Below, piece after piece: positions 4,309 through 57,413 of a DNA stretch of 64,000 nucleotides (its first letter is position 1; every line of letters begins with the position of its first letter). Position numbers and translations under genes: made by a program. The stretch lies in the NCBI GenBank assembly GCA_000092065.1, contig CP000581.1; one strand, given 5' to 3'. This DNA comes from Ostreococcus lucimarinus. Lineage: Eukaryota. The notes beneath the pieces are model-generated. The model saw only the letters and a list, made by a program, of their open reading frames with translations, was not told where the DNA came from and searched no databases.

Positions 4309-4336
4309 CGCGCGTCTCGCGCGCGCTCTCCCGCGC

Positions 4337-18147: not shown

Positions 18148-18404
18148 CTCCGACGTCAAAAGTGGACCAAACGGTCAAACGCTTCGCGTCAGTCATCTCG
18201 CCCGCGCATCGCTCGAGCGCACCCTCGACGATCGCGCCGCCGCGCTCGTCGCCGATTTCGCGTCTCGGCGACAGCCGCGCGCCGATATTCAAAAATCACC
18301 AATCATCATCCGCGTTCTCGTCGCCTCCGCGCGCGCCCCGCGCCCCGCGCGCGCGCCGACGCGTTCGAAGATCGCACCCGCGCGCCCGCGCGCTCGCGAC
18401 GCAC
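18148..18404 (-). other. MSH2: Spliceosomal intron (257 nt) of MSH2
   Basis: Donor AAG|GTGCGT directly after the ...ARAFYK codon (ending at 18405). Acceptor ...cggAG|CAGACG at 18148. In-frame stops lie between the exons. The splice restores the conserved MSH2 N-terminus. Confidence 0.6.
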
Positions 18405-18602: not shown

Positions 18603-18946
18603 CCGAGGGCGGCGAGGAGTGACTGCCGGCACTCGGCGACGCGCGTCGTCGATCGATGCCGCGCGCGCTCGACGCCCCGCTGCTTCGCGAGAACGGCGAC
18701 GACGACGACGACGCGCGCTGCGCGTCGTGAGTCGCGCCGCGCGACGTCGCGCGCGCGAACGACGACGGATCGAGCGACTCGGAATCCGCGCGGTCGGACG
18801 AGGAATACGTTTCGAGACGCGCGCGCGCGGCGACGGGGGCGCGGAGAGTGCGTAAGGTCGCGAACGCGATGTCATCGCAGCGCGTGCTGACGGCGATGGC
18901 GGTGTTGGCGTCGGCGCCGTCGCTCGTGGGGGCGTGATGTTGGCCT

Positions 18947-24200: not shown

Positions 24201-24390
24201 CGTCGCGCGCGCGGCCCCGCGACGCGCGCGCGCGTCGGCGAACCTCGCGCTCGCGCGTCGCGCGCCCTCGCCGCGCGCGCGCCGCCGTCGACGCGACGCG
24301 ACGCGACGCGAACTCGCGCGCGCGACGCCGAGGTTTTCGCGCCACCTCGACCGGGTCGCGAACCCGGGTCGCGCGCGCGCGGCGACCCTC

Positions 24391-24450
24391 GCGCGATCGA
24401 TCGACCGCGCGCGGTCGATCGACGGCGCGATCGATCGATCGCGCGACCGC
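24391..24450. promoter_or_regulatory. Cluster of GATCGATC-type palindromes in the cpSRP54 / large-protein divergent promoter
   Basis: gcgcgatcgatcgaccgcgcgcggtcgatcgacggcgcgatcgatcgatcgcgcg seen directly. See the finding on the recurrent motif. Confidence 0.4.
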
Positions 24451-24854
24451 GCGCGCGGCGGCACACGCGCGCGCGATGCCGACCGACGGCGATGGCGGCG
24501 CGCGCGACGGCGACGACGACGTCGTCGAGCGCGTGGAGTCGCTCGCGCGCGCGGGCGCGGACGCGGACGCGCTGGCGAGCGGTGCGCGGCGCTCGATTCG
24601 ACGCGCGCGCGGCGCGCATTCGCGACGACGAGACGCGACCGACGCGACGACTGACGACGACGACGACGACGCGACGCGCGCAGCGACGACGTGGTTGCGA
24701 AGAGAGATGATGCGCTCGCCCGAGCGCGCGGATTTCGTGGTCAAGGTGCGCGACGCGACGCGACGAGACGCGCGAAGGCGCGCGTGTCGGTTCGTTCGGA
24801 ACCGACCGGCGGCTGCCGCGAACGCGAACGCGGACTGACGCGAAGAACGCGAGC

Positions 24855-27800
24855 GTGAACGATCCGCAGACGTATCTCGCGCGTTCGCCGGATTTTGCGG
24901 ACGTGCTGACGATATGGGACTCGTATCACGCGAATCACGCGCAAAAGGTGTGCGCGCCTCTGCTCGCGATGTGCGGAACGATGATGACGCGAGGAAGGGA
25001 CGACGCGGGCGAGGGGACGTCGACGAGGGAGCGGTTAGCGTTGGATTCCCTCGCGCGGGCGATCATGACGAGGAGGATGCGGCACGTGTACGGGCATTTA
25101 GGAAGTGGGGTTCGAGTGCGAGTGAATGCGGCTTTGATTTTACTCGCGGCGATCGTCGGGAGAGGGAAGCGGAACGCCGCGGAGTTGTTTCGTACGTTTG
25201 ATTTTTCGCTCGCGGCGTTGCCTAAGATTGCGTCGCCGCCGCGAGAGGTGCGAGATGGTGGTGTTTCGTCGAAACGTAAGAAGGAGCCGAGTGATGTTCT
25301 CGCGGGATCGACGCGAAGGGCGTTTTGTGAGTTCGTACTTGCGTTTTTCTCCACAAAGGATCGCGCGTTGCTGCGTCCGGTGCTAGCGCAGCGCGTGTTG
25401 TTTGGAAACGTGGCGCGCTTCGCGGCTGGTGATGAGGCAGAAATGCAGTTCAGAATGTTAGAAGTCATGAAAGAGGACGTGATGGCGAGTGATAGTGGTA
25501 TACCCGCGCGGCTTCGCGCGGCTTTGTTTGGAGACGTCACCCTTGAACAGCTCGCCACCATCGCGGGGCAGAGCGAAGACGAGGAATCGACGTCAGGACG
25601 AGTTGCGGCGATGGCGACGAGAGTGCTTTCGGAGCTTTTCACGGATCCGGCACACGGGTTAGTGCCCGACGGATCGACGACATCGTCGAAAAAGTGCGCC
25701 TCAGTTGTTCGACTCCTACAAAAGCTTCGACCGATTGAATGCGACGCGCACTTGAAGATTCTTCTCCTCGCGTGCGAGACGCATCCATTGCTCGCGACGA
25801 TGTATTTGCCGGGAGCGAAGTACACTTTAGAGCCACGCCTGTCCGCGCATTGGCTCAACAGCGCGAGTCTACTTGGAAGAATAGCCGTCGCCGCAGGTAA
25901 AGATGCAGCATCTTCGGCGGCGGCGGCTCGACTCGAAGCCTCAAGCGTCGTCGGTGAGAGCGAAGGCTCGGCGTTTATCAAAGCCGTTCTACCACCAGGT
26001 GTGAGTAAACAGACCTTGTCAAAAGGTTTAGCGCACAGCTCGCCGATCATTAGGCACGGCTCGCTGTGTTTATTAGTTCAAGTGACGCGAGCAGTCGCCG
26101 CGCGGCTGACGCACTTGGACGCCGCCATCGTAGACGCTCGAAACAGTGGAAGCGATCAGATATGGCGAGTAGAAGAGTTAGCGTCGTACGCACGATTAGC
26201 CGCGACGACATACTTACCGGAAATTCAGTCCATAATGACTGCGTACACGGCGAGCAAGGGGTTGAGTACGTCCGAAAAGGAAGCCACGGCGGCGTTGCTC
26301 GCGCGATGCCACGCCCTCAACGCAATGGCGACGCAGATAAGCGTCATTCCCGAGACGCTCGTGGACGCGAAGGTCGATGTGAACAAATTACTGCCTACAA
26401 ATGATCCCACAAGCTTGGCACCGGCAGAGCTTGCGGCTGTCGTGCGCGTGCTTTGCTCCGCTAGGGGCTTGAAGGAGGCGGCGGGCGATGACGTGTCGAC
26501 GACGACGACGTTGATCCAGGAATCAGGCGTCAATCAGGGACACCTGCTATCTGTTTTGCGCGTCGTGATTTTTGCCACATCGCCTGATGCTCGTGCGTCA
26601 GCAAGACGTCTTGCGAAGCATTACTTGGTGACTTCAGGAGCGTTGGACGGTCGCACTGCGGAAGCCGACGTGTGGATTGATAAACTAACGTCTTTCAAGG
26701 TCGATGGCTTTGAATACTCTCGCGATGTTTTGATGTCATGCACCGAGTTTTTGGCGGAAGCCACGACTGCGGCGGCGCGACGACGATTTAAGCACGACTC
26801 GGTGATACAAACCGCGTTAAAGGAAACGAAAGATAACCGCCCTGAGCGGTACGTCGTGGAAGATTTGTCCGACGATTACCTCAACGCCGCGACGCTTTCA
26901 GTGAGTGCGCTCGCCGTGACAGCGTGCGAGAGCATCGTCAAAGTGCTTAAAAGTGAAAAACGTGATAGCGCGTTTAAGCTTTCCGTCAGTGCGTACGCGG
27001 CATCCGCATTGATGAGCATCGTACAGACGAGCTTTGATCCTTGGGCGCTCGCGTCAATTGCACTTGAAGCCATCAGTGATGAAGTAGCTGGAGCGTACGT
27101 GGCAATGGGGTCGCTTCGCGAGTTTTTGTGCAACTGTACGAGCGAGACAGTCGAGCAACAATTGGTCCCTCGCTCCGGTTCCGTTCCACGAGGAAAACGC
27201 CCGAATGAGTGGTCAATCAGCGAACTGTCTGAAGCGCTCGGACATTTGGCGTCGCTTTCTCCGGAGGATCGAGGACTGGTGCTTTTCTGCGCGCATGCCC
27301 ATATTCCAACGATTGGATTTATCAGCGCAGAATTAGCCTGTCTAACTCTCTACGGCACGGTGAATACGGTCGACGAAAACGTTGAACTGACGACGGCGCT
27401 CGTTAACAGCCTTGCGGCAGCCGACGTAATCGCGGCGTGCGCGTCTGGACCACGTCCCGTGTTGGGTATGAGTATGACTCACGCTTCGCCGGCGTACGAG
27501 CTTTGTTCGCGTGCGATCGCGATGTGCCCGTTGCGTGAGGTTGTCCGCACCTCTCGCGCGCTCGTCTTTTGGTGCAAATGGAACCACGCGCGCGGCGACG
27601 CCAAGACAACGTCGCGACTTATCGAGCTCTGTAAAGTCGTGCTCAGTCGTGCGCGACAAGAATGTCATGACCTACTACGCGAAGTTCAAGTCGTGTTGCT
27701 CGCAACGACAGCAATGTACGCCATTTTAGACGATTCAACAAGTTCCGCCGTGTCGGATCTCGTAATGTTTGGCGCTGCTCTCGCGTGTGATGGCAAAGGC

Positions 27801-30800
27801 GAACTCTACCGGCCTTACGTCCTGCGTTCGGTGGAGAGTTTGACGTCCACAATAAACGCGAAGTTCCAAAAAGTGTCCAAAATCGGTTCCCTGAACGTTT
27901 CACTGGTAGCTTTGGCATCGAACGAACAAAAGTTGAGCCTTTTGGAGATGAGCGAAGCGAATTCAATGCCGGAAGTGGCCGTTCTAATTGCCGAAGCCGT
28001 CGTGGACGCGCCGAGTTCGAGCTCGCCTGTGCGAATGCACGCTGTTCGTTTTGCCGTTCGCATCGCGTTGAGCGAAGCCTCGACTGATTCTCTCGTAAGA
28101 ACGTCGTGTCGAGTAGCAAAAGCTGCGATCGACTCACTGCACGCGCTCGAATCAAGAGAAGTACTCTCTGGAAGGGCACCGGACTTTGCCGCGGTGCCGG
28201 AGGCTTTGGATTTGGTTCAGAGCGTTGTGAATGATCACAGCTCGGAGGCCAGAGTGCAATTGGCGGCCTCGTTTTTAGCGCACTCGGAGTCGCTTGCGTC
28301 ATGGTATCTCACAGACGTATCCACGAAGAGCTTATCACACGATGATCTGTTCAAACTGTTGCCGCTGAGCGAACGAGCGATGTGCTGGAACGCGCTCTAC
28401 CACACTACGCCGAATGCCGAAGACTTGGCGACGGAGTACCGAAATCTCCTCATCGACGCGTGCTTCGAGGATGGTGACGTCATATCATCGTCCATATCCA
28501 ACCACGCCGTCGGAACACTGGTCTCATGCTTGCAAATCGCACCCTTCAGTGCTGATTCGTCTGAGTACGAGCGCTTCGTCGAACGCGCAACACCGCCACA
28601 GGGCTGGACCCGCGAAAGCGACATCGAAATCATTCGCGCGCAGATTGCCGTGAGGGTCTTTGTCGAGAGCGATGCACTCGACGAAAAGCTCAGGCTCGTG
28701 ACATGTCTGCTCCAATCTCTTGCGGCTTTGACACCTACCAACAAAATGATCAAGCGCGACGCTTCGGCGGAAAAATACCTCGCCGAATCCTTAACCAGAG
28801 CGCTGGATGAGATTCAACGACGACCGCTCTCGAGTCCGAGCGCGCCCGTTTTGAATCGGCTCGTAAATGCGTGCGAAGCGTTCATTTTGCAGTCTATCGC
28901 GCATAGGTTCCGCTCGCATCGACGATTTGGCGTCATCGGGCGAATTGGTGCCGTGTTAAACGAGCTCCAGTCGATCAGGACGCAAACGCACCTCGGCATG
29001 CAAACGCTCGCCGAGGGTGTCGTTTCGCAAATCGTCGCGCATCCCCTGTTCACGCGCGTTCTCACAACCGGGTCGAGTGATGACGATGCGACGTTACCCG
29101 CAAATGTTCGCGATATGCCAATCACCGTTAAGTCGATTATCGAAGTCGTCGAGGATACGTCAGCGTTTGAAACCGGCGCGGTGGCGTCAAACTCGAGTGA
29201 GTTGAAACTGGAATTGTTGCGCGTTTTGAACTCTTTCTGGAAATTACAAGATGCGAATGGGGCAAACGAGACGATCGCGTGCAGAAAGTGGCGCGCTGAA
29301 CGAGCGAACACACTCATAACGCTCGCTTCGGGATACGGCGCGACGATGAGCGAAACCGATCGCGTCGCGCAAGACTTGATGCTCGCCATCGACGCGAGCA
29401 CGGGCGGCGGCGCGTTGCGGTCGCTCGGATACCTCTGGGGCGAGTCAGTGACGCACTTCGTGAAAGCGACGATCGCAATTCGCAGAAATGAAAACGAAAG
29501 CTACGACGTCGAAGATTTGCTTTACTCCGAGCCGTCTCCAGCGCTTGTGGCGTCCGCTATTCGAGAGGGTTCGCCGCCCGATGCGCGCCGCGCGGCGGCG
29601 ACGGCTAATCGCTACCCTGTGACGCGATCAACGCCACCTTCAACGGCCATGGTGTCGGATGAAACACTCGATGAGTGCGTTTCTTTTGGATACGACCCTT
29701 CGTGGGTCCTTCCTTTTGCCCTGCGCTCGCTCATGACGGATGCCATGGATCCGCGCGAGGCGATCGCGTGGGGACTCGCCCCGCTAGCGGCGGCCGCGCT
29801 TTCATCTCACGATGAAGCCACGCGCCGAGTGGCGTACGCTATCCTATCGACGTTGGAGCATCGGGTTAGTGATCCAATGATGTCGTTCCGCGAGCGAACT
29901 CAAGTGTTGGCGTGCCTGAGCGCGATACGAAACGCGACGAGCGAGGCGTTGATTCGTTGGCCCTCGCCGAGCGCCGTGCTCACGGCTGAGTGCATGATTT
30001 CGTGTTTGTACCCCGAACTTGATACCTTCTTACCGCTTCAGAGGCAACTCAACAAGCGCGCGGCGCTCGATCTCGACGGTCTTCCCATGTTTCTTCCCAT
30101 GCTGAACAGCGGTGATGTTGACGCCAGACAGCACCGTTTTTGGATCCTTCGCTTGCTCCGAGCGTCGTTGAAGGATGACGTCGACGCCACGATGTTTCGT
30201 AAAACTTTCGCCTTGGAGGTGGTGATGAGTCATTACAGCACGACCTTAGCGGAGCCTTTCGTGCGGTTCCTCATGCTTGATCTCATCTCGCGCGCGTGCG
30301 CCGTGCAATTTGCCGCCCGACCTCTCGTCGAAGGCGGCGGTTTGATCGCTTGGTTGGCCTCTGTGGCGCGCGCGGCGTGCGTCGACGATGAGCACGGGAT
30401 TCGTTCCGGTGAATCCTCCAACTTGCGAGCGGCAACGGCAAGAAAAGCCGTTGAAGCACTTGTGGCGCTGATCCGCCAGAAAGGTTCGATTTATCTCGGT
30501 CCGACGGGTACGGCGGCGGATTATTTGTCGGCGTTGCAAACAATTCGCGGCGCCCTCTTGCGCGGCGACGCCCCGTCACACGCCGAAATCGCCAGTCGTC
30601 GCGCGGCACTCGGACCGTACTTGAAGCTTCACATAGAAATTGCGGAGCGATTACGCCGGCGCATCGCTGAAGTCGGCGATCCCGTGGAAATCGCCCGTTT
30701 GTGTCGCGCGGCGGATGAGGCGCCTAACGCGGCGGCGCTCCGAGACGACATGTTCAGAGTCGTCGTGACTTCCGAAGGCGGTGGTCAGTACGCCAAGCGG

Positions 30801-31397
30801 TGCACGCGCGAGACTTCTCGCGCACTCGCAGATGCAGTAACTTTTTCTGCTTCTTGGGCCGCCGCACACGCCGCCGATGTATCTGAGCGCGTGTCCAAAC
30901 GCGCCGGCGAGGACGCCTTCGAGGCGACGGCGCGTTGGTGCGCCAGCGCGCTCGCGAATGGGGGCGCTTCGTTCGTCAACGCGCTCATGAGCGCGCACGA
31001 GTGCGGTGGTGTCGTGCGATTTGCCAACATCATGACGGCGTGCGAACGCGCGTCGTGCGACGCCGCGCGTCGCGAGTTGCGACTCCCTTGCTTAGCCGCG
31101 CGGCTGTATCTCTTGCGCGCGGCGCAAGCCTTCGCCGACGAGTCGACGTCTGAAGCCGACGCCGCGATGAAGCGCGCGATCGCTGACGATAAAACCGACG
31201 ACTTTGTCGCCGGAGGCGCGCTCGATCGCGCCGTCGCCGCGACCGCCGCGGGAGACGCGACTGCGTTCGTCTTCGCGACGGCGCGTCTTCGCGCCGCCTT
31301 CGCAGGGGTGGGTTTCGCGCGCGCGCGCGACGACGCGAACGACGAAAACCAGCCGTCAAAGAAGAAACCCAAGAAGTCACGGGTGGCGTTGCGATGA
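24855..31397 (+). CDS. Very large (about 2180 aa) alpha-helical protein, possibly nucleolar pre-ribosomal-associated protein 1 (URB1/Npa1)-like
   Basis: Single uninterrupted 6.5-kb ORF with coding-like composition, no enzymatic motifs and a helical-repeat character. Size and architecture are consistent with URB1/Npa1, but the family is not verified. Listed start is GTG. The 5' end may lie upstream or in another exon. Confidence 0.5.
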   Translation: MNDPQTYLARSPDFADVLTIWDSYHANHAQKVCAPLLAMCGTMMTRGRDDAGEGTSTRERLALDSLARAIMTRRMRHVYGHLGSGVRVRVNAALILLAAIVGRGKRNAAELFRTFDFSLAALPKIASPPREVRDGGVSSKRKKEPSDVLAGSTRRAFCEFVLAFFSTKDRALLRPVLAQRVLFGNVARFAAGDEAEMQFRMLEVMKEDVMASDSGIPARLRAALFGDVTLEQLATIAGQSEDEESTSGRVAAMATRVLSELFTDPAHGLVPDGSTTSSKKCASVVRLLQKLRPIECDAHLKILLLACETHPLLATMYLPGAKYTLEPRLSAHWLNSASLLGRIAVAAGKDAASSAAAARLEASSVVGESEGSAFIKAVLPPGVSKQTLSKGLAHSSPIIRHGSLCLLVQVTRAVAARLTHLDAAIVDARNSGSDQIWRVEELASYARLAATTYLPEIQSIMTAYTASKGLSTSEKEATAALLARCHALNAMATQISVIPETLVDAKVDVNKLLPTNDPTSLAPAELAAVVRVLCSARGLKEAAGDDVSTTTTLIQESGVNQGHLLSVLRVVIFATSPDARASARRLAKHYLVTSGALDGRTAEADVWIDKLTSFKVDGFEYSRDVLMSCTEFLAEATTAAARRRFKHDSVIQTALKETKDNRPERYVVEDLSDDYLNAATLSVSALAVTACESIVKVLKSEKRDSAFKLSVSAYAASALMSIVQTSFDPWALASIALEAISDEVAGAYVAMGSLREFLCNCTSETVEQQLVPRSGSVPRGKRPNEWSISELSEALGHLASLSPEDRGLVLFCAHAHIPTIGFISAELACLTLYGTVNTVDENVELTTALVNSLAAADVIAACASGPRPVLGMSMTHASPAYELCSRAIAMCPLREVVRTSRALVFWCKWNHARGDAKTTSRLIELCKVVLSRARQECHDLLREVQVVLLATTAMYAILDDSTSSAVSDLVMFGAALACDGKGELYRPYVLRSVESLTSTINAKFQKVSKIGSLNVSLVALASNEQKLSLLEMSEANSMPEVAVLIAEAVVDAPSSSSPVRMHAVRFAVRIALSEASTDSLVRTSCRVAKAAIDSLHALESREVLSGRAPDFAAVPEALDLVQSVVNDHSSEARVQLAASFLAHSESLASWYLTDVSTKSLSHDDLFKLLPLSERAMCWNALYHTTPNAEDLATEYRNLLIDACFEDGDVISSSISNHAVGTLVSCLQIAPFSADSSEYERFVERATPPQGWTRESDIEIIRAQIAVRVFVESDALDEKLRLVTCLLQSLAALTPTNKMIKRDASAEKYLAESLTRALDEIQRRPLSSPSAPVLNRLVNACEAFILQSIAHRFRSHRRFGVIGRIGAVLNELQSIRTQTHLGMQTLAEGVVSQIVAHPLFTRVLTTGSSDDDATLPANVRDMPITVKSIIEVVEDTSAFETGAVASNSSELKLELLRVLNSFWKLQDANGANETIACRKWRAERANTLITLASGYGATMSETDRVAQDLMLAIDASTGGGALRSLGYLWGESVTHFVKATIAIRRNENESYDVEDLLYSEPSPALVASAIREGSPPDARRAAATANRYPVTRSTPPSTAMVSDETLDECVSFGYDPSWVLPFALRSLMTDAMDPREAIAWGLAPLAAAALSSHDEATRRVAYAILSTLEHRVSDPMMSFRERTQVLACLSAIRNATSEALIRWPSPSAVLTAECMISCLYPELDTFLPLQRQLNKRAALDLDGLPMFLPMLNSGDVDARQHRFWILRLLRASLKDDVDATMFRKTFALEVVMSHYSTTLAEPFVRFLMLDLISRACAVQFAARPLVEGGGLIAWLASVARAACVDDEHGIRSGESSNLRAATARKAVEALVALIRQKGSIYLGPTGTAADYLSALQTIRGALLRGDAPSHAEIASRRAALGPYLKLHIEIAERLRRRIAEVGDPVEIARLCRAADEAPNAAALRDDMFRVVVTSEGGGQYAKRCTRETSRALADAVTFSASWAAAHAADVSERVSKRAGEDAFEATARWCASALANGGASFVNALMSAHECGGVVRFANIMTACERASCDAARRELRLPCLAARLYLLRAAQAFADESTSEADAAMKRAIADDKTDDFVAGGALDRAVAATAAGDATAFVFATARLRAAFAGVGFARARDDANDENQPSKKKPKKSRVALR

Positions 31398-31734
31398 AGA
31401 ACCATCGCGCGCGCGGATCGCGGGTGTATCCGAGGAATTATCGCAGTATGTAGCATTAGTAGCCGCGGGACGCGCGAGTCCGGTCCTCGGTCGATTGTAC
31501 AGTATTGTATTGTATTTCTACGTAAACCACCTTCGCCGCCGTCGTCTGTGTGATTGGTGAAGACCTCGCGATCTTTTACAATGTTGTTCAAAGGAATTGA
31601 ATGCTAATAGTTTGCTCTGGCTGATATTGGCTAAGAAGACGAGCGCGCATCGCCGCGAGCGTCGCGCGCGCTTTCGCGCGCGCGCCCCGCTACGCGCGCT
31701 CGTCGTCGTAATTTAAGTACCCCGCGCGGCGCAC

Positions 31735-31977
31735 TTAAACGTTCACAACCTTTTGGATGATTTGGTTCGCGATCGCGGACGCTTGCGCATCCACTTGGCT
31801 CGCCGAATCCTTCTTCGCGGCATCCAACGCCGTCATCGCTTGCGCGATTTGCGCGTCAACCTCCGCCTTGGCCTTATCCGCGGCGGCGGCGACGTCGGCG
31901 TCCATCTTCGCCTTCATCGCCGTGACTTCGTTCGCGACTTCGGCGCGCGCGTTCGCGATGACCTTTTCCTTCTCCGC
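31735..31977 (-). CDS. ATPG: Chloroplast ATP synthase CF0 subunit b' (ATPG), exon 2 of 2
   Basis: AEKEKVIANARAEVANEVTAMKAKMDADVAAAADKAKAEVDAQIAQAMTALDAAKKDSASQVDAQASAIANQIIQKVVNV* matches the coiled-coil C-terminal region of b/b' subunits (...IVKKVLPV). It is in frame upstream of ORF 31735..31917 up to the acceptor at 31978. Confidence 0.65.
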   Translation of the reverse strand, partial: AEKEKVIANARAEVANEVTAMKAKMDADVAAAADKAKAEVDAQIAQAMTALDAAKKDSASQVDAQASAIANQIIQKVVNV

Positions 31978-32220
31978 CTATCATCGATACCAAAATTTAA
32001 CGCACACCGTCAGTCACTCGCGCTCTCGCGTCGTCGTTCCGTTCGCGCCCCGCGCGCGCCCGTTTGGATAAACCCCAAACGACCCATCTCGCCGTCGGCG
32101 ATTCGCGCCGCGCGCGCCCGCGATTCGCGCCGCCCCCCCCCCCCGGCGCGTCCCGCACAAAAAAAAACTCCTCGCGCGCGTTTCTCGCTCGCGCGCGCGC
32201 GTCGCGTCGCTCAAACGTAC
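31978..32220 (-). other. ATPG: Spliceosomal intron (243 nt) of ATPG; contains (C)12 at about 32133..32144 and (A)9 at about 32159..32167
   Basis: Donor ...GCG TTG ATC|GTACGT. Acceptor ...ggtatcgatgatAG|GCG GAG AAG. In-frame TAG at 31978..31980 means read-through is not possible. Intron length is a multiple of 3. Confidence 0.6.
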
Positions 32221-32592
32221 GATCAACGCCTCAACCTCCGCCGAGTTCCCGCCGACCGCGGCGAGCTGCGATCGAATGAGCTCGTCGCGATCGTCGAGCG
32301 CCTTCCCCACCGGCCCGAACACCGTCTTATCGAGGATCGTCATCAGCAGCAAAAATTCCGTCGCGATGATCGGCAGCGTGAGATCGAAGTCGAACAGCTT
32401 CCCCGCCTCGGCGTGCGCCGCCGGGACCGCGCACGCGATCTGCGCCGCGAGCGTCATCGCGGGGAGCTTGACGCGATCGACGACGTCGGCGACGCGCGCC
32501 TTGACGGCGGTCGCGCGCGTCGCCGCGCGCTTGCTCGGCGCGGGCGCCTTCGCGGCGGTGATTCGGATCGCGCGGGCGGCGACGAGGGACAT
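32221..32592 (-). CDS. ATPG: ATPG exon 1 (transit peptide plus membrane anchor)
   Basis: ATG at 32592 gives MSLVAARAIRITAAKAPAPSKRAATRATAVKARVADVVDRVKLPAMTLAAQIACAVPAAHAEAGKLFDFDLTLPIIATEFLLLMTILDKTVFGPVGKALDDRDELIRSQLAAVGGNSAEVEALI. GKLFDFDLTLP...FLLLM...LDDRD is the hallmark b' (atpG) motif. Joined protein is 204 aa. Confidence 0.65.
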
Positions 32593-32710
32593 CTCGTTCG
32601 TGGGCGTGCGCGTGTGTGTCGCGATCCGCCGTCGCGGCGCGACGCGTGCCTCGCGCGGGGATTCGATCGCGAGATTCGCTTCGTCCGTGTGTCGCGCGGC
32701 GTCACCGGTC

Positions 32711-32945
32711 TCGCGATCGATCGACCGTCCGCCGTCGATCGATGGCGCGACGGTCGCGCGCGCGCGTCGAACCTCGCGTCGTCGATCGACGCGCGACGTC
32801 GCGACCGCGCGCGCGACGCCGCGCGCGGGCGTTCGCGCGCGACGCCGAATCGCGACGCGACGCGACGCGGCGACGCGATGCCGCGACGCGCGGCGACGCG
32901 CGCGCGGTAGATCGATCGCCATGGCGCCGAGCCATCGATCGTCGT
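32711..32945. promoter_or_regulatory. GATCGATC palindrome clusters in the ATPG / LTD-gene divergent intergenic region
   Basis: tcgcgatcgatcgaccgtccgccgtcgatcgatggcgcg (about 32711..32750) and gtagatcgatcgccatggcgccgagccatcgatcgtcg (about 32908..32945), seen directly. Confidence 0.4.
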
Positions 32946-33385
32946 ACGGCGCGCGCGATCGCACGTACGCGTGTCGCGCGACGCTGCGGATGTGGACCGC
33001 GTGCGCGTGCTTTCCGTGCGTGGGCGAGACGCTGTGCGAGCCCGGAGACTTGGGGTATCGCGCGCGATATCTCGTGTTTCGATGCGAGCGCGCGCGCGCG
33101 ATCGGCGGACGCGCGGCGGAGATGGCGGGGGAGGACGTGCGCGGGATGGTGGAGGCGCTCGAGGACGACGTCTTCGCGTGCCGGGTGAGCGCGGGCGAGG
33201 GCGCGGTGGAAGTCGAGATTCGAGCGGGAAGTCGAGCGAGGGTGCTGATGTACGCGCTGACGCTGCGGACGGCGGACGGGCGGGGGCTGGGGTTGGAGCT
33301 GGTGGAGGAGCGACGCGCGAGTCGACGCGAGACGGTTGGGTGGTGACGTTTCCGAGGGCGCGCTCCGAGGGCTTCATAATCGAGC

Positions 33386-34042
33386 ATGCGGTGGTCGAGC
33401 GCGTGGATCGTCGCGATGTGCGTCGTCGTCGCGGAGGCGACGTCGATACCGGCTGAACCGCGCGAGGTGACGCGATACGGCGCGGCGCAGATTACTGAGA
33501 TTTCTTACGAACAACTCGACGCGGCGGACGCGACGGAGGGCGAGACCGCGGGCTCGGGGGACTGGATCGAAATTTACAACCCGAGTGAAACCGACAAAGT
33601 AGATCTCACCGGTTGGGCGTTCACCGATCGCAGCGCGCGCGCGATCGAAAAGAATCCCGAAGTCGCGGTTGGTCATTGGTTCGAGCTGCCCGAACTCGAG
33701 CTCGCCCCGAAATCGTTCGCCGTGCTCGCGCGCGACGAAATGGCGTTTCGCACAGCGTATCGCGACCGCGACAACGCGCTCGACGCGCTCGTCCGAGGGA
33801 GCTTCAAGTTTGGACTCACCGCCAAGGGCGAGACGGTTCGTCTTTTGGACGCGTCCAACGAAACCGTGTACGAGCTGACGTACGACGACAAGTCCCCGTG
33901 GCCCGACACCTCGGAAGGTGGACACAGCCTCGAGCTCATCGACGTTCGTCTAGATCCGAACGATCCGTTCAGCTGGATCAGTTCATACGAAGAGGGAGGC
34001 ACGCCGGGCGAAATCAACTCGATCGCGGTCTCGTGGGGGTAG
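33386..34042 (+). CDS. Secreted lamin-tail-domain (LTD) protein
   Basis: ATG at 33386. Signal peptide MRWSSAWIVAMCVVVAEA. Then ITEISYEQ...GDWIEIYNPSETDKVDLTGWAFTD...GETVRLLDASNETVYELTYDDKSPWP...GGHSLELID...DPFSWISSYEEGGTPGEIN matches the LTD consensus (InEi.y...eWiElyN....dLsGw.l.d...L.d..g..vD.v.Y...W....g.S.er......w.......TPG..N). Confidence 0.7.
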   Translation: MRWSSAWIVAMCVVVAEATSIPAEPREVTRYGAAQITEISYEQLDAADATEGETAGSGDWIEIYNPSETDKVDLTGWAFTDRSARAIEKNPEVAVGHWFELPELELAPKSFAVLARDEMAFRTAYRDRDNALDALVRGSFKFGLTAKGETVRLLDASNETVYELTYDDKSPWPDTSEGGHSLELIDVRLDPNDPFSWISSYEEGGTPGEINSIAVSWG

Positions 34043-34043
34043 C

Positions 34044-34111
34044 GCCGCGTAATCGAAGCCGCGTAATCGAAGCCGCGTAATCAAGCCGCGTAATCGAAGC
34101 CGCGTAATCGA
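34044..34111. repeat. Minisatellite: about 5 tandem copies of the 14-bp unit GCCGCGTAATCGAA, starting 2 nt after the LTD-gene stop
   Basis: gccgcgtaatcgaa gccgcgtaatcgaa gccgcgtaatcaa gccgcgtaatcgaa gccgcgtaatcga, seen directly. The repeated TAA gives stops in one frame. Confidence 0.85.
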
Positions 34112-34222
34112 CGCGCGTCGGTGCTCGATCGGATTCGATCTGTCTTTGAAATTCATTCTTTCATTTCGATCATCAACTAATACGTCGCGAGCGACACCGA
34201 CGCGGCGTAAATAAATGCTCCT

Positions 34223-35074
34223 CTACTTGATGGACGACCCCGAAGGCGTCTCTGGCGCCGTGCACTCACCCGCGGCGCACGCGAGCACCTTGTCGTCGTA
34301 CACCGCCTTGCCATCCTTCACGACGAGCTTTTCCTTAACGGCATCCCAAAACTTACTCTTGCACTCCTTCGGGTACGTCTCCGACGCGGTCATCCCCGTC
34401 GGCGTCACCGGCGCGCCGACTTCGGCGCCCTCGGGCGCGCGCACGAGCTTCACCTTCGTCTCGCCGTCAACCTCGAACTCCGTGGCCAGAATCATCGCCT
34501 CGGACGTTTGCCCCGCCAACTTCGCCACCTTCAAGTTCAAAATCGTCAGCACCAAAGCGTCCTTCAGTTCGCTCTCCGGGACAAACTTGCGCAACCCCGT
34601 GACGACTTGCCTCGGGTTCTCTTCGCCGCAGTCCACCTTGCACAGATACAATTTATCGCTATTCTCCACGCGTCCCACCTCGATCACGCGTCCGACGACG
34701 AGTTTCGCCTTTTCCATCGGATCCGCGTCCACCGCCGCCGCCGCCGCCGGTCTCTTCTCCTTCTTCTCCTTCTTCTTCCCGCCCTCGCTCGCGTCGCTCG
34801 CGGGCCTCCGCACCCCCTCCCCCCTCGGCTTGATCACCGGGTTCAGCATCGCCACGATGTACTCGCACGTCTGATCGAACGCCTCGGGCATGGGATTGTT
34901 CGCCTCGAACGGTTTCGTCATCACGTATCCCGTGCGCTCGCACGTCACGCGCGTCACGCCCCGCGGCGGCGCGCGCGCGATCGGATCGGCGCGCGCCGTC
35001 GCGTCGACCGCGCGCGTCGTCGCGGGCGCGCCGGCGCCGAGCAAAGCGTCGGCGAACGCGGACATCGTTTCCAT
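34223..35074 (-). CDS. tRNA-binding (Myf/EMAP-II-like) domain protein, Arc1p/AIMP1(p43) family
   Basis: ATG at 35074. Lys-rich linker KKKEKKEKR. Then an OB-fold tRNA-binding domain: KLVVGRVIEVGRVENSDKLYLCKVDCGEENPRQVVTGLRKFVPESELKDALVLTILNLKVAKLAGQTSEAMILA. Confidence 0.7.
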   Translation of the reverse strand: METMSAFADALLGAGAPATTRAVDATARADPIARAPPRGVTRVTCERTGYVMTKPFEANNPMPEAFDQTCEYIVAMLNPVIKPRGEGVRRPASDASEGGKKKEKKEKRPAAAAAVDADPMEKAKLVVGRVIEVGRVENSDKLYLCKVDCGEENPRQVVTGLRKFVPESELKDALVLTILNLKVAKLAGQTSEAMILATEFEVDGETKVKLVRAPEGAEVGAPVTPTGMTASETYPKECKSKFWDAVKEKLVVKDGKAVYDDKVLACAAGECTAPETPSGSSIK

Positions 35075-35438
35075 CGAGCGCTCGAGCGGGTTCGCGGTCG
35101 GGCGGCGCGCGCGCGAGTGCGACGCGCGCGCGCCGCGCCGCGCGCGAGGTCGGCGAGTTTTGAGTCGTCGCGACGCGCGCGTCGCGCGGGCGTCGCGGTC
35201 GTCGCGCGGGCGCGTCGCGCGCGTCCGCGCGACGCGACGCGAAAAAAATCGATAAAGAACACATCACCGGATCGAGTGACGCGCGCGCGAACGCCGCGTC
35301 GAGCGCGTCGTCACGGGCGCGGTGGACGGCGCGGAGCGTTTCTGGCGAAAACGCCCGCGCGGAGACGCGACGCGACGGGCGCGCGCGGCGCGAGGCGGCG
35401 CACGACGACGCGCGACGACGCGCGCGCGAGGGGTGAAG

Positions 35439-36029
35439 ATGGCGAACGATCCGTACGAACCGGACGACGCGTCGGACAGCGACGAGGACGCGCGCGAGCG
35501 ACGCGAGAGGGATGCGAGAGCGCGATTCGAGCGCGACGTCGAGGACGAGCTGGGCGACGCGACGGACGTCGACGAGCGATCGTGGGAGGGGTTTTGGCGA
35601 CGCGCGACGGCGGAGAACGCGGCGAAAATGCGGCGGGCGGGATTGGATCCGAATAAAGCGGAGAGCAAGGTGAAGTTCGGGAGACACGGGGAAAAGTTGG
35701 AGAAGGGGAAGTGCGCGACGACGCTTTGCTTTGGGTGCGACGCGCGGTGCGACGAGACGTTTGAGTGCGCGCAGTGCTTGGAAATTTATCGAGCGCGGGC
35801 GAAGAAAGTGGCGTTCGACGCTTGGGAGCGCGCGTTCTTTTGTTCGTGCAAGTGCTACATCGCGAATTGGGATGAGCATCGGCGGCGGCACGGGCCGAGC
35901 ACCGCGGGGCCGACGAAGATGGACGGCGCAGTGCACGAGTTTGAGGCGCCGCCCGGGCTCGGTGCGCTTTGGCACGGATCGGATTTGCGACGATTGGAGT
36001 TTGAAGAGTGCGCACCTATGATGTATTGA
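35439..36029 (+). CDS. MYND-type zinc-finger protein with acidic N-terminus
   Basis: ATG at 35439 (in frame within ORF 35322..36029). CFGCDARCDETFECAQC...FFCSCKCYIANWDEHRRRHG fits the MYND C-x2-C-x(7-8)-C-x2-C...C-x-C-x(5)-W-x2-H-x3-H/C pattern. Confidence 0.5.
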   Translation: MANDPYEPDDASDSDEDARERRERDARARFERDVEDELGDATDVDERSWEGFWRRATAENAAKMRRAGLDPNKAESKVKFGRHGEKLEKGKCATTLCFGCDARCDETFECAQCLEIYRARAKKVAFDAWERAFFCSCKCYIANWDEHRRRHGPSTAGPTKMDGAVHEFEAPPGLGALWHGSDLRRLEFEECAPMMY

Positions 36030-36077
36030 GATCACGGCGGCGCCTAGGGCTATCGTTCGCTACGTTGTGTGAGTCTA

Positions 36078-37205
36078 CTAGTCCGGCGTGAGGAGTTCAG
36101 ATTCGCCGCCCCGCGCGCCGCCTCCAGGTTCGACTTCCAACGGAGGTGCGGTCGGTGACGCCATCGACGGTGCGACGTAATCATCGCGACCGAAATCGGC
36201 TTTCGCATCGTTCCCACTCTTGTAATGCGATTCTTCGTCCGACGTCTCCACTCCTAGAGGCACGCCGTGCGTGCGTAAATATTCCGCCAGCGTGAAATGA
36301 TTATATTTCCCCGCGATATCGACCGCGGTTCGCCCTCGAACGTCTCTCGCGGCTGGATTTGCGCCGAGCACTAGTAACTTTTTGCACGTCGCCTTGTTCC
36401 CGTTCGCGGCGGCGATCATGAGCAACGTCTGCTCATCGCTCGTCTCGTCGCGCGCGTCAACGTCTAAGCCCTCGGCATCGACCAAACGTTCCATTTCGTA
36501 CGTACGATTCAGTTTGCACGCCCGAATCGCCGCCGTCATGACCTCGGCCTCTCGCGCGAACGGCGACGACGACGCGCGCGAGCCGCTCTCTGTGCGCGAA
36601 CTGGACAGCCGCGCGCCGGCGTCGAACGCGCTCGCGCCGATCCACTCCGTGTCGTCGCTGAACGTGTCTATCGCGGGATTGTTCAAAATCTCCAAAAGCT
36701 GCCCTGCGACCGTACCGATGGACATGATTTCATCGCACAACGCGTACGCCTCTTTCAAATCGGCGCCGCGCTCGACGTCTCGCGCAAACGTCTCGTAATC
36801 CATATCGCCAATAATCTCCGACCGCTCCTCATCGAACGACGTCATCAAAAACGCAAACACCGACCGTATTTCCTCATCCGACAACCTCTTCCATCGCACC
36901 GTCCGCGTCAGCCGATCGATCACCGCGTCCAGTCGCGTCGGCGTCCACAGCGCGCCGCATCGAACGCTCGCGCACGCCCGCCAAAAATCACACAATCGCA
37001 CCGTCCCGCGCCCGAACTGATCGCACATCGCGTGAAACCGTCGAAACACCACCGAACGCTCCCAGTCATCGCGTCCGAGCCCCAACGCGCGCGCCATCAC
37101 GCGCTTCTCCAATTTCGCCTCCGCGCTCCCGAACCCGTCCCGAACGACCGCGCGCAGGATTATTCCCGGTTTCGTCGCCCCCCGCGGTCGCAGCGCGGCG
37201 TACAT
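36078..37205 (-). CDS. Ankyrin-repeat protein
   Basis: C-terminal ANK repeats (TLLMIAAANGNKATCKKLLVLGANPAARDVRGRTAVDIAGKYNHFTLAEYLRTHG). Listed ORF start 37331 is GTG. First ATG at 37205 (MYAALRPRG...). The N-terminal domain is unassigned. Confidence 0.5.
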   Translation of the reverse strand: MYAALRPRGATKPGIILRAVVRDGFGSAEAKLEKRVMARALGLGRDDWERSVVFRRFHAMCDQFGRGTVRLCDFWRACASVRCGALWTPTRLDAVIDRLTRTVRWKRLSDEEIRSVFAFLMTSFDEERSEIIGDMDYETFARDVERGADLKEAYALCDEIMSIGTVAGQLLEILNNPAIDTFSDDTEWIGASAFDAGARLSSSRTESGSRASSSPFAREAEVMTAAIRACKLNRTYEMERLVDAEGLDVDARDETSDEQTLLMIAAANGNKATCKKLLVLGANPAARDVRGRTAVDIAGKYNHFTLAEYLRTHGVPLGVETSDEESHYKSGNDAKADFGRDDYVAPSMASPTAPPLEVEPGGGARGGESELLTPD

Positions 37206-37920
37206 CGCGTCTCCCAGCCGCACCTCGCGCGCGCTCGCGTGCGTCCCGCGCCGGCACCGCCTGCATCGCCGAACAGCGTCGTCGTCGTCAGTCGTCCCTC
37301 GTCGTCGTCGTCGGCCGCGGCGCGTAACCACCGCGTCGGCATCCGCGCGCGTTTCGGCGCTCGCGCCCGCGCGCGCGCGCAGTCACCGCGACGCCGGCGC
37401 GCGTCGCGACTCGGTTCGCGATCGCTCGCGCACCTCGCGCTCGCGCACGCCCCCATGCGCGCGATCGCCGCGCGTCGCGCGCTGGCGTCGTCGCCGCGCG
37501 CGCGCGCGACCGACCGCGCCGACCCCATCCACCACTTGAGTCAAGACTCATCAGCGATTACATGGTAAAACCTTCCCTTGAATACGAGTCGCGCAAAACG
37601 ACGCGTCGATCGAAGCGACGCCGCGCGTCGGTCGACTTTTCGCGCGCGTCGTTTTGCGCGCTGCATACGCTCCGCGCGCGCTTATGTACGACGACGTCGC
37701 GCGTCGCGGGCTTTTATGTCCGCGCGCGCGCCTCGCGCGCGCGGCGACCGCCGACGGCGCGCGCGCGGCAGTCTGCGTCGCGCGACGCGCGGCGATCTCG
37801 ACGCCGTCGACGCGAGAGAGGTGCGTGGAAATTATCGCGACGCGCGCGCGTCGAGCGGCGCGCGCGGCGCGCGCGCGGCGCGCGGGAGGGTGGACATCGC
37901 GCGACGTCGCGCGCGAGGGC

Positions 37921-37974
37921 AAACGCGCGCGCGGTCGATCGGGGGAAACGCGCGGCGCGCGCGGTCGATCGGGG
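37921..37974. repeat. Two tandem copies of about 28 bp (AAACGCGCG..GCGCGGTCGATCGGGG) in the ankyrin / P-ATPase divergent promoter
   Basis: aaacgcgcgcgcggtcgatcggggg aaacgcgcggcgcgcgcggtcgatcgggg, seen directly. Each copy carries the GGTCGATCG palindrome core. Confidence 0.6.
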
Positions 37975-38282
37975 AGGTGGGCGCGCGCGCGGCGCGCGCG
38001 CGGTGGTTGAATATCGCGCGGGGTGGGGACGCGCGCGAACGGGGCGAACGGGACGCGCGCGCGCGCGCGAGGGGAGGGTTCGCGGCGGATTGATCGATTG
38101 GGGTATATGCGGTCGCGGGGCGGTGCGGACGGCGGTCGTGGACGCGCGCGCGAGGCGCTGGGGGGCGGGCGGGCGAGCGGGATGCGTTCGGGGAAAGCGT
38201 ACTGACGATCGACGCGCGTGATTCGCGAAAAACAGGTTGACGCGTGCGCTGGAGACGCGAGCGCTTTAAGTAGAGGTTTGCG

Positions 38283-57007: not shown

Positions 57008-57413
57008 GTCGCGTCGCCGTCTGTCGCGCATTCGAATTTTCACACTGTTTACTCGTACGAGCGCGCGAACGGTCGGTCGGACGCGAGCGCCGCGCGCGGT
57101 GTGATTTTCCTAGGGCTTTTGAGGCGCGACGCGACGGCGCGTGCCGTCTCTCACAGACGCACGGTCGCCAAGGTACGCGCGTCGCGATGGCGCGAACGCG
57201 CGCGCGCATCGCGTTTACGTCGCATCGCGCGATGTCGCGAGCGATGCGCGACGCGTGGACGACGCTGGTGACCGCGACACGCGCGCGAAAAGACGACTGA
57301 CATCGATCGCGCGCGCATCGTTACTCTCGCGCAGGGTCGACTACACAACCCTCTAGTCGTTCGAACCCGTTCGTCGACGTTGATAAACAAATCTCTATCG
57401 CAGATTTACAGCC

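Follow-up and report, generated by a model that had tools for sequence, protein, structure and literature searches.

The palindromic 8-mer TCGATCGA was strongly and specifically over-represented in the 5' non-coding regions of the analyzed window, a stretch of 64,000 nucleotides of nuclear DNA from Ostreococcus lucimarinus CCE9901. This over-representation was replicated in independent loci, and the copies displayed a palindromic flank preference (extended consensus RTCGATCGAY) and a clustered anatomy. We judge the chances to be about even that the word is a genus-specific palindromic cis-element of Ostreococcus, perhaps a GATA-type zinc-finger site; judged from the DNA itself, its copies upstream of genes are plausible candidate regulatory sites.

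Abundance and Location of the Palindrome

Over the whole window, TCGATCGA was found 17 times vs. 6.66 ± 2.31 expected from dinucleotide-preserving shuffles, and the 7-mer CGATCGA 79 times vs. 54.8 expected. The original prediction had put the 8-mer at less than one and the 7-mer at only a few chance occurrences per 64 kb; neither estimate holds, chance having been underestimated 7- to 50-fold, since CpG (observed/expected = 1.67), GA, and TC are over-represented dinucleotides in this DNA. Nor is TCGATCGA confined to promoters, as had been proposed: seven of the 17 copies lie in coding sequence (3.6-5.5 expected there), and these stand outside the element. The palindromes were correctly placed by the earlier reading, and their neighbors are the genes it named (ClpB/HD-domain, MSH2, cpSRP54/Npa1, ATP-synt_B/LTD, ankyrin/P-type ATPase, and CDC16/RPS10). 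Among the copies it described as looser, those at 4840, 4866, and 18649 are exact TCGATCGA, whereas the one near 57300 is indeed loose. The individual sites were as follows:

4840-4847 and 4866-4873: two exact TCGATCGA, 26 bp apart, in the 662-bp head-to-head region between ClpB (-) and an HD-domain gene (+), 95 and 69 bp before the ATG of the latter (4935)
18649-18656: single TCGATCGA within GTCGATCGAT, 47 bp before the exon-1 ATG of MSH2 (18602, - strand)
24390-24446: tandem array, 3.4 copies, 16-bp period, consensus CGCGCGATCGATCGAC, with TCGATCGA at 24397, 24415, and 24431, the last within (GATC)3.25 at 24429-24441; upstream of both genes, 45-79 bp from the Npa1 exon-1 ATG (24476, + strand) and 311-345 bp from that of cpSRP54 (24086, - strand)
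32714-32789: three TCGATCGA (32717, 32735, 32782), 125-190 bp upstream of the ATG (32592, - strand) of ATP-synthase b' (ATPG)
32910-32918: GATCGATCG, ending 3 bp before the ATG (32921, + strand) of a conserved 141-aa ORF that precedes the LTD gene
32934-32941: ATCGATCG inside the 141-aa ORF, in codons His-Arg-Ser
37606-37613: single TCGATCGA in the 1077-bp region between the ankyrin (-) and P-type ATPase (+) genes, 401 bp from the ankyrin ATG (37205)
37821 to near 38243: candidate 5'UTR intron of the P-type ATPase gene, donor AGAG/GTGCGT (37821), branch point ACTGAC (38199), acceptor CAG (near 38243)
37924-37992: tandem duplication, 2.4 copies, 30-bp period, carrying GGTCGATCGGGG twice and GGTCGATCG at the same two positions (37933 and 37963); the P-type ATPase ATG (38283) lies 350 and 320 bp downstream of them
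38206-38212: CGATCGA immediately following the candidate branch point (ACTGAC), with the P-type ATPase ATG 77 bp downstream
57302-57309: loose copy ATCGATCG immediately following ACTGAC between CDC16 (-) and RPS10 (+), with the RPS10 ATG (57414) 112 bp downstream
14516, 44674, 45184, 48166, 49869, 50394, and 58772: coding copies of TCGATCGA, near chance frequency

The entire 24390-24446 block forms an imperfect palindrome, and a long imperfect palindrome was also delimited at 24370-24473. A 37-nt module of the pattern CGATCGATCGACCG-N6-GTCGATCGA-Y-GGCGCGA is common to 24394-24430 and 32714-32750, in two unlinked promoters, with 31 of 31 specified positions identical. Distance to the ATG was not fixed, varying from 12 to about 400 bp, and no clear common functional theme was apparent among the flanking genes. 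As to the inferred position relative to transcription starts, the 37924-37992 duplication may sit within the candidate intron of the P-type ATPase gene, and some copies are probably located in a 5'UTR or 5' intron instead of a promoter.

Enrichment in 5' Regions

The 6.16 kb of 5' non-coding DNA in the window contained 10 copies of TCGATCGA in contrast with about 1.0 expected under a third-order Markov model of the same regions, and none of 2000 simulations under this model reached that number. Five regions carried the 8-mer (1.0 expected; P about 0.004), and three carried at least two copies (0.05 expected). The original prediction had named equal density in coding sequence as one of two genome-wide outcomes that would speak against it; within the window, density in 5' regions was about 8-13 times that of coding sequence. 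Regions bearing the 7-mer showed no excess (6 vs. 6.25 expected), whereas those bearing the 8-mer did; what makes up the signal is therefore the full palindrome, clustered in some of the 5' regions.

An unbiased scan of these regions placed the GATCGA/CGATCGA/TCGATCGA family first at k = 6 (1447 words), k = 7 (2773 words), and k = 8 (4061 words), with CGATCGA present 35 times vs. 12.1 expected (P = 6e-8; k = 7 scan). No excess was found in the window for GCGATCGC, which has the CGATCG core with G/C flanks (16 vs. 15 expected), nor in its 5' regions for the 4-mers GATC (39 vs. about 39-43) and TCGA (69 vs. about 54-69). Around half of the copies had G...C flanks (GTCGATCGAC), which extend the palindrome but not the repeat phase. 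Over-representation of the word is specific to 5' regions and is not an effect of composition.

By our gene map, four of the 12 head-to-head 5' regions in the window carried the exact 8-mer, the fifth bearing region being that upstream of MSH2. Carrying the element is not a general property of head-to-head promoters, and it is nearly absent at the O. tauri locus.

Occurrence in Other Lineages

A replication set comprised 6.55 kb of 5' regions from loci of other Ostreococcus lineages (L013, L015/16, L017, and L018), whose intergenic DNA is unalignable with that of the window. The same family again ranked first at every k, with 41 copies of CGATCGA vs. 8.9 expected; leaving out the L018 cluster, it was still first at k = 7 (18 vs. 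4.4; 7 of 14 regions). Densities of the 7-mer per kb were higher in 5' regions than in coding sequence at L013 (2.2 vs. 0.29), L017 (6.8 vs. 0.8), L018 (20 vs. 0.9), and L102 (3.8 vs. 0.69). Enrichment was weak at L015 and at the O. tauri locus (two 7-mers and no 8-mer in 2.06 kb of 5' regions), and absent from Micromonas-like loci. The orthologous Npa1/cpSRP54 promoter of L018 held nine copies, which precede the Npa1-like ATG by 30-140 bp, and the L017 copy upstream of MSH2 adjoined (AATC)n and (ATC)n runs. Across lineages, orthologous promoters shared eight positives vs. 5.5 expected from region length (P = 0.19). The earlier suggestion of a cis-element is borne out as regards 5' enrichment, which survives proper nulls, but gains nothing from orthologous promoters, where presence of the word is not significantly conserved. 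In the sister lineage L096/L097, about 97% identical overall, every copy was kept, and the nine substitutions in the ATPG promoter (32714-32789) all fell outside the cores; as only about 0.9 would be expected to hit them, this retention carries no information on constraint.

Tandem Duplication and Repeat Background

Multiplicity within clusters, including the doubling or tripling within 60 bp pointed out earlier, was largely due to units of 16-31 bp having been duplicated locally in tandem; the clustered copies are therefore not independent sites. Tandem Repeats Finder called arrays of 16-bp period at 24390-24446 and 30-bp period at 37924-37992, together with a 31-bp array and (CGAT)4.5 in L018; no array was called in the ATPG promoter. 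Short tandem repeats abounded in the 5' regions in general, with tetranucleotide duplications of all kinds reaching 67 vs. 25, 160 vs. 35, and 112 vs. 25 in the three data sets (2.6-4.6 times). In the window, the TCGATCGA family reached about 7.5 times expectation vs. about 1.8 times for all other duplications, and CGAC, GACG, and GCGA units were far commoner raw material than its own unit. Among 33 tetranucleotide repeat families, it led in two data sets; in the third, O. tauri plus L102, (AATG)n was on top, but the TCGATCGA family still reached 5 times expectation. Other top words in the scans were also short repeats (AGAGAG, ACGACGAC, AATGAATG, and AATCAAT). Arrays in the window were short (up to 3.25 units), many copies being exactly two units with G...C flanks, and no length polymorphism of the 24390-24446 array was seen among five environmental genomes.

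Alternative Explanations

The main rival, which we regard as possible but doubtful, is a non-functional by-product: duplication or slippage in CpG-rich, low-complexity 5' DNA would create and amplify short repeats, and a (TCGA)2/(GATC)n family, lacking any sequence-specific reader, would have become frequent in some lineages by drift. Tetranucleotide duplications are indeed in excess in all three data sets and the other top words are likewise short repeats, but the TCGATCGA family stands far above the remaining duplications despite their commoner units, and leads in two independent data sets. Clusters are called as arrays, and the L017 copy before MSH2 adjoins simple repeats; yet arrays in the window are short, many copies have exactly two flanked units, and the five population samples display no length polymorphism. 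Moreover, copies with 8-47 bp of unrelated sequence between them, such as those in the ATPG promoter, are not slippage products, and the 37-nt module recurs in two unlinked promoters. The uneven prevalence among lineages, weak in O. tauri and L015, and the non-significant conservation of orthologous promoters remain on the side of the by-product.

An epigenetic or chromatin signal instead of a classical transcription-factor site appears unlikely. The 8 bp of TCGATCGA hold one symmetric ApT and two symmetric CpGs. In A/T-poor 5' regions (70-82% G+C), the word could therefore offer AMT1-type N6-adenine methylation its substrates, mark where 6mA gives way to DNMT5-type CpG methylation, or position nucleosomes. 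In O. tauri and Micromonas, AMT1-type methylation is a mark of active genes at their 5' ends, and 6mA is reported at symmetric ApT just downstream of transcription starts, replacing 5mC, in Ostreococcus and Micromonas (PMC12695648). The copies are almost the sole A/T-containing words within long CG runs, and several may be located shortly after the start, within the 5'UTR or the first intron. However, AMT1 reportedly needs ApT only, and over-representation of the long palindrome alone, GATC and TCGA showing no excess, suggests that 8-10 bp are recognized instead of ApT; Micromonas-like loci, also with 6mA, lack the enrichment. Still less probable is an RNA-level element in the 5'UTR or first intron, such as hairpins affecting translation or splicing. 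It would accommodate the copies 12-95 bp before several ATGs, the two loose copies right after branch-point words (38199/38206 and 57296/57302), and the imperfect palindrome at 24370-24473, but a stable hairpin 45-80 nt before the ATG would impede scanning, a perfect DNA palindrome between opposite-strand genes suits double-stranded DNA recognition, and Rfam gave no family match over the whole window. The underestimated expectation and the near-chance level of coding copies could suggest an artefact of chance or composition, the least credible of these explanations: it is effectively ruled out for the window by the third-order simulations, the unbiased scans (first rank in two independent data sets), and the GCGATCGC control.

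Relation to Known Elements

As a cis-element, the copies of TCGATCGA would act at the DNA level as palindromic sites bound by a transcription factor that is sequence-specific and probably a dimer, and only some genes would carry them in their CpG-rich 5' regions. We infer both this binding and an effect on transcription. Tandem duplication would multiply the element locally, giving clusters of like sites.

Several known systems resemble it in part. The Drosophila DRE (TATCGATA), read by the BED-finger protein DREF, is a palindromic 8-mer core-promoter element enriched near gene starts, often multi-copy, in compact head-to-head pairs. TCGATCGA shares with it the 8-bp perfect palindrome, the central CGAT/ATCG, and this arrangement; in contrast, its sequence differs, about half of the Ostreococcus copies (GTCGATCGAC) lack ATCGAT, and the kingdoms are different. 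HIP1 of cyanobacteria (GCGATCGC), reportedly linked to DNA methyltransferases, is likewise a palindromic octamer with a CGATCG core, but is near chance in the window and occurs genome-wide including genes, whereas TCGATCGA is enriched in 5' regions only. Promoter microsatellites (GATC)n are similar in that TCGATCGA equals two TCGA units, arrays reach 3.25 (window) and 4.5 (L018) units, and clusters are tandem duplications within repeat-rich DNA; they differ in that most copies here are two units with palindrome-extending flanks, the family is far above other units, and length is not polymorphic in five samples.

The best candidate for the identity of the reader would be a GATA-type zinc-finger factor, from a family recognizing GATC/GATCGA-type cores in plants and fungi. 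Both subunits of the White Collar Complex are GATA-type zinc-finger proteins. The GATCGA/CGATCG core is identical to a reported motif of this complex, whose binding motifs in Neurospora are GATCGA and GATNC-CGATN (PMC7493669); it also matches CGATCG, a word that models of rice promoters place in a GATA-like class (PMC10390317), and a C2C2-GATA family is reported for O. lucimarinus (PMC4827209). GATA-type sites are likewise found upstream of genes in close pairs or repeats; unlike them, the Ostreococcus form is a longer perfect palindrome, RTCGATCGAY, within CG runs, and the resemblance is one of sequence only. If this reading is true, a nuclear protein of O. lucimarinus or O. tauri, GATA factors included, would bind GGTCGATCGACG more than its core-mutated form. 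Of the three largest clusters, two are next to nuclear genes related to photosynthesis (cpSRP54 and ATP synthase b'), which would fit a light-regulated use of GATA sites.

Enrichment of the palindrome in 5' non-coding DNA

The 8-base palindrome TCGATCGA and its variants were found at every position named in the original prediction, and the copies described there as loose (4840, 4866, and 18649) were in fact exact. The accompanying estimate of less than one 8-mer per 64 kb by chance did not hold: dinucleotide-preserving shuffles of the window gave an expectation of 6.66, against 17 copies observed, because the window is rich in CpG (1.67 times expectation) as well as in GA and TC (1.29 times); for the 7-mer CGATCGA, 79 occurrences were observed vs. 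54.8 expected. Seven of the 17 copies lay in coding sequence, close to the local expectation of 3.6–5.5, and TCGATCGA is therefore not confined to promoters as had been proposed.

When compared with a third-order Markov model trained on the same 5' non-coding regions (21 regions, 6.16 kb; 2000 simulations), these regions contained 10 copies vs. 1.07 expected, a number reached in none of the 2000 simulations; with coding sequence near chance, the predicted clustering in 5' regions of the window was borne out. At least one copy was present in 5 of the 21 regions (1.0 expected; P = 0.004) and at least two in 3 of them (0.05 expected), while the 7-mer was no more widespread than expected (6 regions vs. 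6.25). Thus, it is full palindromes that cluster, and they do so in some of the regions only.

An exhaustive word scan of the 5' regions of the window, independent of the initial choice of word, placed GATCGA first at k = 6 (39 vs. 18.1 expected), CGATCGA first at k = 7 (35 vs. 12.1; P = 6e-8 among 2773 words), and TCGATCGA first at k = 8 (10 vs. 1.4). The 4-mers GATC and TCGA were at expectation in these regions, as was, over the window, GCGATCGC, which has the same core with G/C flanks (16 vs. 15.0), so that the excess is specific to the long palindrome; the count of GCGATCGC, together with that of TCGATCGA in coding sequence, also led us to reject identity with HIP1. The consensus of the aligned instances was RTCGATCGAY. 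Leaving aside its quantitative framing, which was wrong, and the supposed exclusivity of the copies to promoters, the observation stands up to statistical testing and is real, and chance or a compositional artefact is a highly improbable source of the excess. O. lucimarinus DNA flanking the window (5.1 kb to the left and 7.6 kb to the right) had one intergenic copy and was uninformative, since its 5' regions are short and add up to just about 1.3 kb.

Anatomy and position of the copies

For the gene map, we combined genes called on public contigs that were identical or nearly so, Pfam scans, and a verification of start and stop codons, and the 5' ends of four genes were revised after comparison with other lineages. 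The features concerned are:
MSH2, - strand, exon 1 from 18602, followed by an intron; 5' end revised by lineage comparison
Npa1, + strand, short exon 1 with ATG at 24476; 5' end revised by lineage comparison
ATPG (ATP-synthase b'), - strand, start at 32592; 5' end revised by lineage comparison
32921-33346, + strand, conserved 141-aa ORF between ATPG and the LTD gene; 5' end revised by lineage comparison
49742-51436, - strand, eIF2D, protein identical to XP_001415753.1 (O. lucimarinus CCE9901)

The clusters of the palindrome are:
24390-24446, three copies in a tandem array with a 16-bp period, within a larger imperfect palindrome
32714-32789, three copies, no tandem array
37924-37992, two GGTCGATCGGGG copies in a 30-bp tandem duplication

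The doubling or tripling of copies within 60 bp was confirmed as a grouping; the clusters at 24390-24446 and 37924-37992 are, however, tandem duplications. Copies were paired at 16–30 bp in four regions, and this pairing stems from tandem duplication, with no fixed spacing. Segments 32714-32750 and 24394-24430 agreed at 31 of 31 specified positions in a 37-nt pattern.

Distances from the copies to the nearest downstream ATG were as follows:
Npa1, 45–79 bp
MSH2, 47 bp
HD gene, 69 and 95 bp
ATPG, 125–190 bp
141-aa ORF, 3–11 bp
P-type ATPase, 77, 320, and 350 bp

No preferred distance to the ATG emerged among the copies of the window, the spread being 12 to about 400 bp. According to our gene map, the 8-mer occurs in 4 of the window's 12 head-to-head 5' regions; given also the chance-level number of regions with the 7-mer and the near absence of the word from an O. 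tauri locus, the palindrome does not occupy the large share of promoters of one class (such as head-to-head or housekeeping genes) that a DRE-like core-promoter element should. We also rejected the ends of Logan contigs as transcript ends: these contigs are unspliced and cross head-to-head promoters, and are therefore genomic DNA.

The palindrome in other Ostreococcus lineages and relatives

A metagenome scan with cpSRP54, supplemented by searches that used relatives of ClpB and of the P-type ATPase, provided syntenic loci from other Ostreococcus lineages (L013, L015/16, L017, L018, and L102) and from O. tauri (L101; GCA_000214015.2). The intergenic DNA of these loci fails to align with that of the window. 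In 6.55 kb of 5' regions from L013 and L015-L018, the family GATCGA/CGATCGA/TCGATCGA again came first at k = 6, 7, and 8, with 41 CGATCGA vs. 8.9 expected (P = 4.5e-15), and the 7-mer kept its first place once the large cluster of L018 was removed. This cluster consists of nine TCGATCGA copies located 30–140 bp upstream of the ATG of the Npa1-like gene, in the orthologue of the 24390-24446 promoter. Enrichment was weak in L015. O. tauri and L102 together (5.2 kb of 5' DNA) displayed 14 CGATCGA vs. 5.3 expected (rank 16), the 2.06 kb from O. tauri alone lacking the 8-mer and having the 7-mer twice, and no enrichment of the palindrome was detected in Micromonas-like loci.

Intergenic DNA of L013 gave no credible alignment to the window, and that of L015, L017, and L018 had no recognisable likeness to it beyond short words; long-range comparison was consequently reduced to presence or absence, for which 26 orthologous region pairs yielded 8 shared positives vs. 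5.5 expected with region length modelled (P = 0.19, not significant). At close range, five population samples (99.3–99.9% identity to the window) carried identical arrays, and the sister lineage L096/L097 retained every copy in the 5' region upstream of ATPG (about 97% identity, nine substitutions elsewhere); these genomes are too near to be informative. Apparent conservation of a TCGATCGA upstream of MSH2 in L015 and L018 was discarded, as the word belongs to coding sequence (Phe-Asp-Arg-Lys in exon 1) instead of a promoter.

Several features of the related loci were recorded in passing. The sister lineage (L096/L097, about 4285-4330) has 46 bp more than the window at position 32650 upstream of ATPG (...ctcgcgcgcgatcattcatttcctatgcgcaaacagtcgcgggcg...), through insertion there or deletion in the window; this stretch contains the ATTCATT word, within a promoter that is otherwise 97% identical. 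About 200 bp of AT-richer DNA with nested inverted repeats (...gtacttactaagttagtaagtac...; L018, 201-400) occur between cpSRP54 and Npa1 in one lineage only and look like a miniature inverted-repeat transposable element. A Mamiellales-like metagenome contig of 59% G+C (L105) encodes, about 2.5 kb from ClpB, a 766-aa ORF (327-2627) with a weak Pfam match to Cas12f1-like_TNB (TnpB-like). The genome of Micromonas commoda has about 64% G+C. Its ClpB orthologue (L104; CP001574.1, 1149239-1171698) lies within a stretch of only 46.8% G+C, presumably the low-GC region of chromosome 1, so that promoter words at this locus make for a poor comparison.

Possible origin and role of the palindrome

The explanation that we consider most likely, and to which we would give about an even chance, is a genus-specific palindromic candidate cis-element that tandem duplication has multiplied locally; the foremost candidate for the protein that would read it is a GATA-type factor. 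The subunits of the Neurospora White Collar Complex are GATA-type zinc-finger proteins. Motifs bound by this complex include GATCGA and GATNC-CGATN (PMC7493669), and every TCGATCGA presents GATCGA, with the GATC core of plant GATA-type sites, on both strands. In the suggested comparison with known plant motifs, the core of TCGATCGA matches CGATCG, a word of the GATA-like class in rice promoter models (PMC10390317); CGATCGAT was listed as a "novel" over-represented word in one rice promoter set (PMC3224702). According to one published report (PMC4827209), O. lucimarinus and O. tauri both have a C2C2-GATA family; no GATA-type factor is encoded in the window. For the algae themselves, our literature search found no paper on TCGATCGA in Ostreococcus or Micromonas promoters.

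A serious rival, if a somewhat unlikely one, is that the palindrome is a non-functional by-product of short-repeat formation. TCGATCGA is itself (TCGA)2, copies inside clusters are tandem duplications, further top-ranking words are likewise short repeats, and tetranucleotide duplications as a class reached 2.6–4.6 times expectation in the 5' regions of all three data sets. The (TCGA)2/(GATC)n family nevertheless stood out in the window with 27 occurrences vs. 3.6 expected, in contrast to 40 vs. 21.8 for the remaining tetranucleotide duplications pooled, despite the commoner 4-mers available to the latter as raw material; in two data sets none of the 33 families ranked above it, and in the third it attained five times expectation. 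Such figures led us to reject a microsatellite-like excess comparable to that of similar units. Arrays are also short, and many copies have G...C flanks that extend the palindrome. Together with the lack of length variation in five environmental genomes, these points speak against an origin by neutral processes alone. A (GATC)n microsatellite of at least three head-to-tail units was rejected for the window, where a single array attains 3.25 units (24429-24441) and other runs have about 2 (2–2.25); arrays of 3.5–4.5 units were present in L018. No length polymorphism was seen either among the five environmental O. lucimarinus genomes, a small sample, which were identical over 24300-24520.

An epigenetic or chromatin role is unlikely. 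In Ostreococcus and Micromonas, active genes bear symmetric 6mA at ApT at their 5' ends, in place of linker 5mC (PMC12695648), and the palindrome does contain the symmetric ApT that an AMT1-type 6mA target would need. A more elaborate version, which we regard as very improbable, would make RTCGATCGAY a genus-specific epigenetic switch. Within 8–10 bp, one palindrome would combine a 6mA substrate, the symmetric ApT, with two 5mC substrates, the symmetric CpGs, and it would label the site near the start of Ostreococcus genes at which linker CpG methylation gives way to 6mA. Its recognition by a dimeric factor, possibly GATA-type, would depend on how it is methylated, and small tandem duplications that gain or lose copies would rewire expression between sister species. 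A role at the RNA level is barely credible. Non-coding RNA genes in the long intergenic regions were rejected: an Rfam scan returned no match at the gathering score, and no tRNAs were found.

Ostreococcus, the smallest free-living photosynthetic eukaryote, is a model for minimal gene regulation. To our knowledge, very few of its cis-elements have been described, and our literature search returned just an evening element in TOC1, a clock gene, and general footprinting statistics. If functional, the palindrome would represent a promoter word that is simple and easily counted and whose strength differs from one Ostreococcus species to another, and would offer a handle on the reading factor (GATA factors being the obvious first candidates), on the turnover of promoter content between cryptic marine species, and on a possible tie of promoter words to the unusual 6mA/5mC landscape of these algae. 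If only a by-product, it would document Ostreococcus 5' regions as hotspots of small tandem duplication, which is relevant to motif discovery there.

Other words, composition, and introns

A second tetranucleotide family, (AATG)n / ATTCATTC, was strongly over-represented in Ostreococcus 5' regions (5 vs. 0.09 expected in the window; 21 vs. 1.1 in O. tauri and L102), and CCGACCG, which resembles the DRE/CRT core, AGAGAG/CTCTCTC, and GCATGC were further enriched words. An E2F-type reading of AAACGCGCG, which adjoins the palindrome, was rejected since its orientation is incompatible with TTTSSCGC. A canonical E2F-type site, TTTCGCGC, is located at 24336-24343 in the cpSRP54/Npa1 region, 55 bp from the first palindrome, and is unrelated to it.

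Intergenic composition was sharply split, with 70–82% G+C and long CG runs in 5' regions (head-to-head and tandem-upstream) vs. 31–58% in 3' regions, across all intergenic regions of the window. The tail-to-tail regions were very short (42–242 bp, with a single exception of 616 bp). A near-perfect tandem array of GCCGCGTAATCGAA (4.9 units, 96% matches) occupies 34044-34118, in the 3' intergenic DNA between the LTD gene and the gene with a tRNA-binding domain. The 141-aa ORF had no Pfam match; it aligns to an ORF of L013 (4668-5063; local score 187), is also predicted as a 141-aa gene in L096, and is either a separate small gene or exon 1 of the LTD gene. Npa1 seems to begin with a short exon (about 24476-24582), whose N-terminal motif AGADADA[LI]A is common to L015; ACTGAC occurs at 24650, and no exact splice sites compatible with the reading frame emerged.

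Exon 1 of MSH2 ends in ...AFYK and is followed by an intron (in the region of about 18125-18385) with donor AAG|GTGCGT, branch point ACTGAC, and acceptor CAG. ACTGAC was found at the same place upstream of MSH2 in three further lineages (L015, L017, and L018) and looks like the branch-point consensus of Ostreococcus; this accounts for the apparent enrichment of GACTGAC-type words in DNA classed as 5' regions. With ACTGAC as branch-point word, a 5'UTR intron is probable for the P-type ATPase (about 37821 to about 38243); it would contain three copies of the palindrome and would explain the unusual length (1077 bp) of the ankyrin/P-type ATPase intergenic region. This candidate intron appears to be conserved in L013 (about 9495-9990), with donor GTGCGT/GTACGA and ACTGAC 35–55 nt before the AG, and ends just 5' of the ATG.
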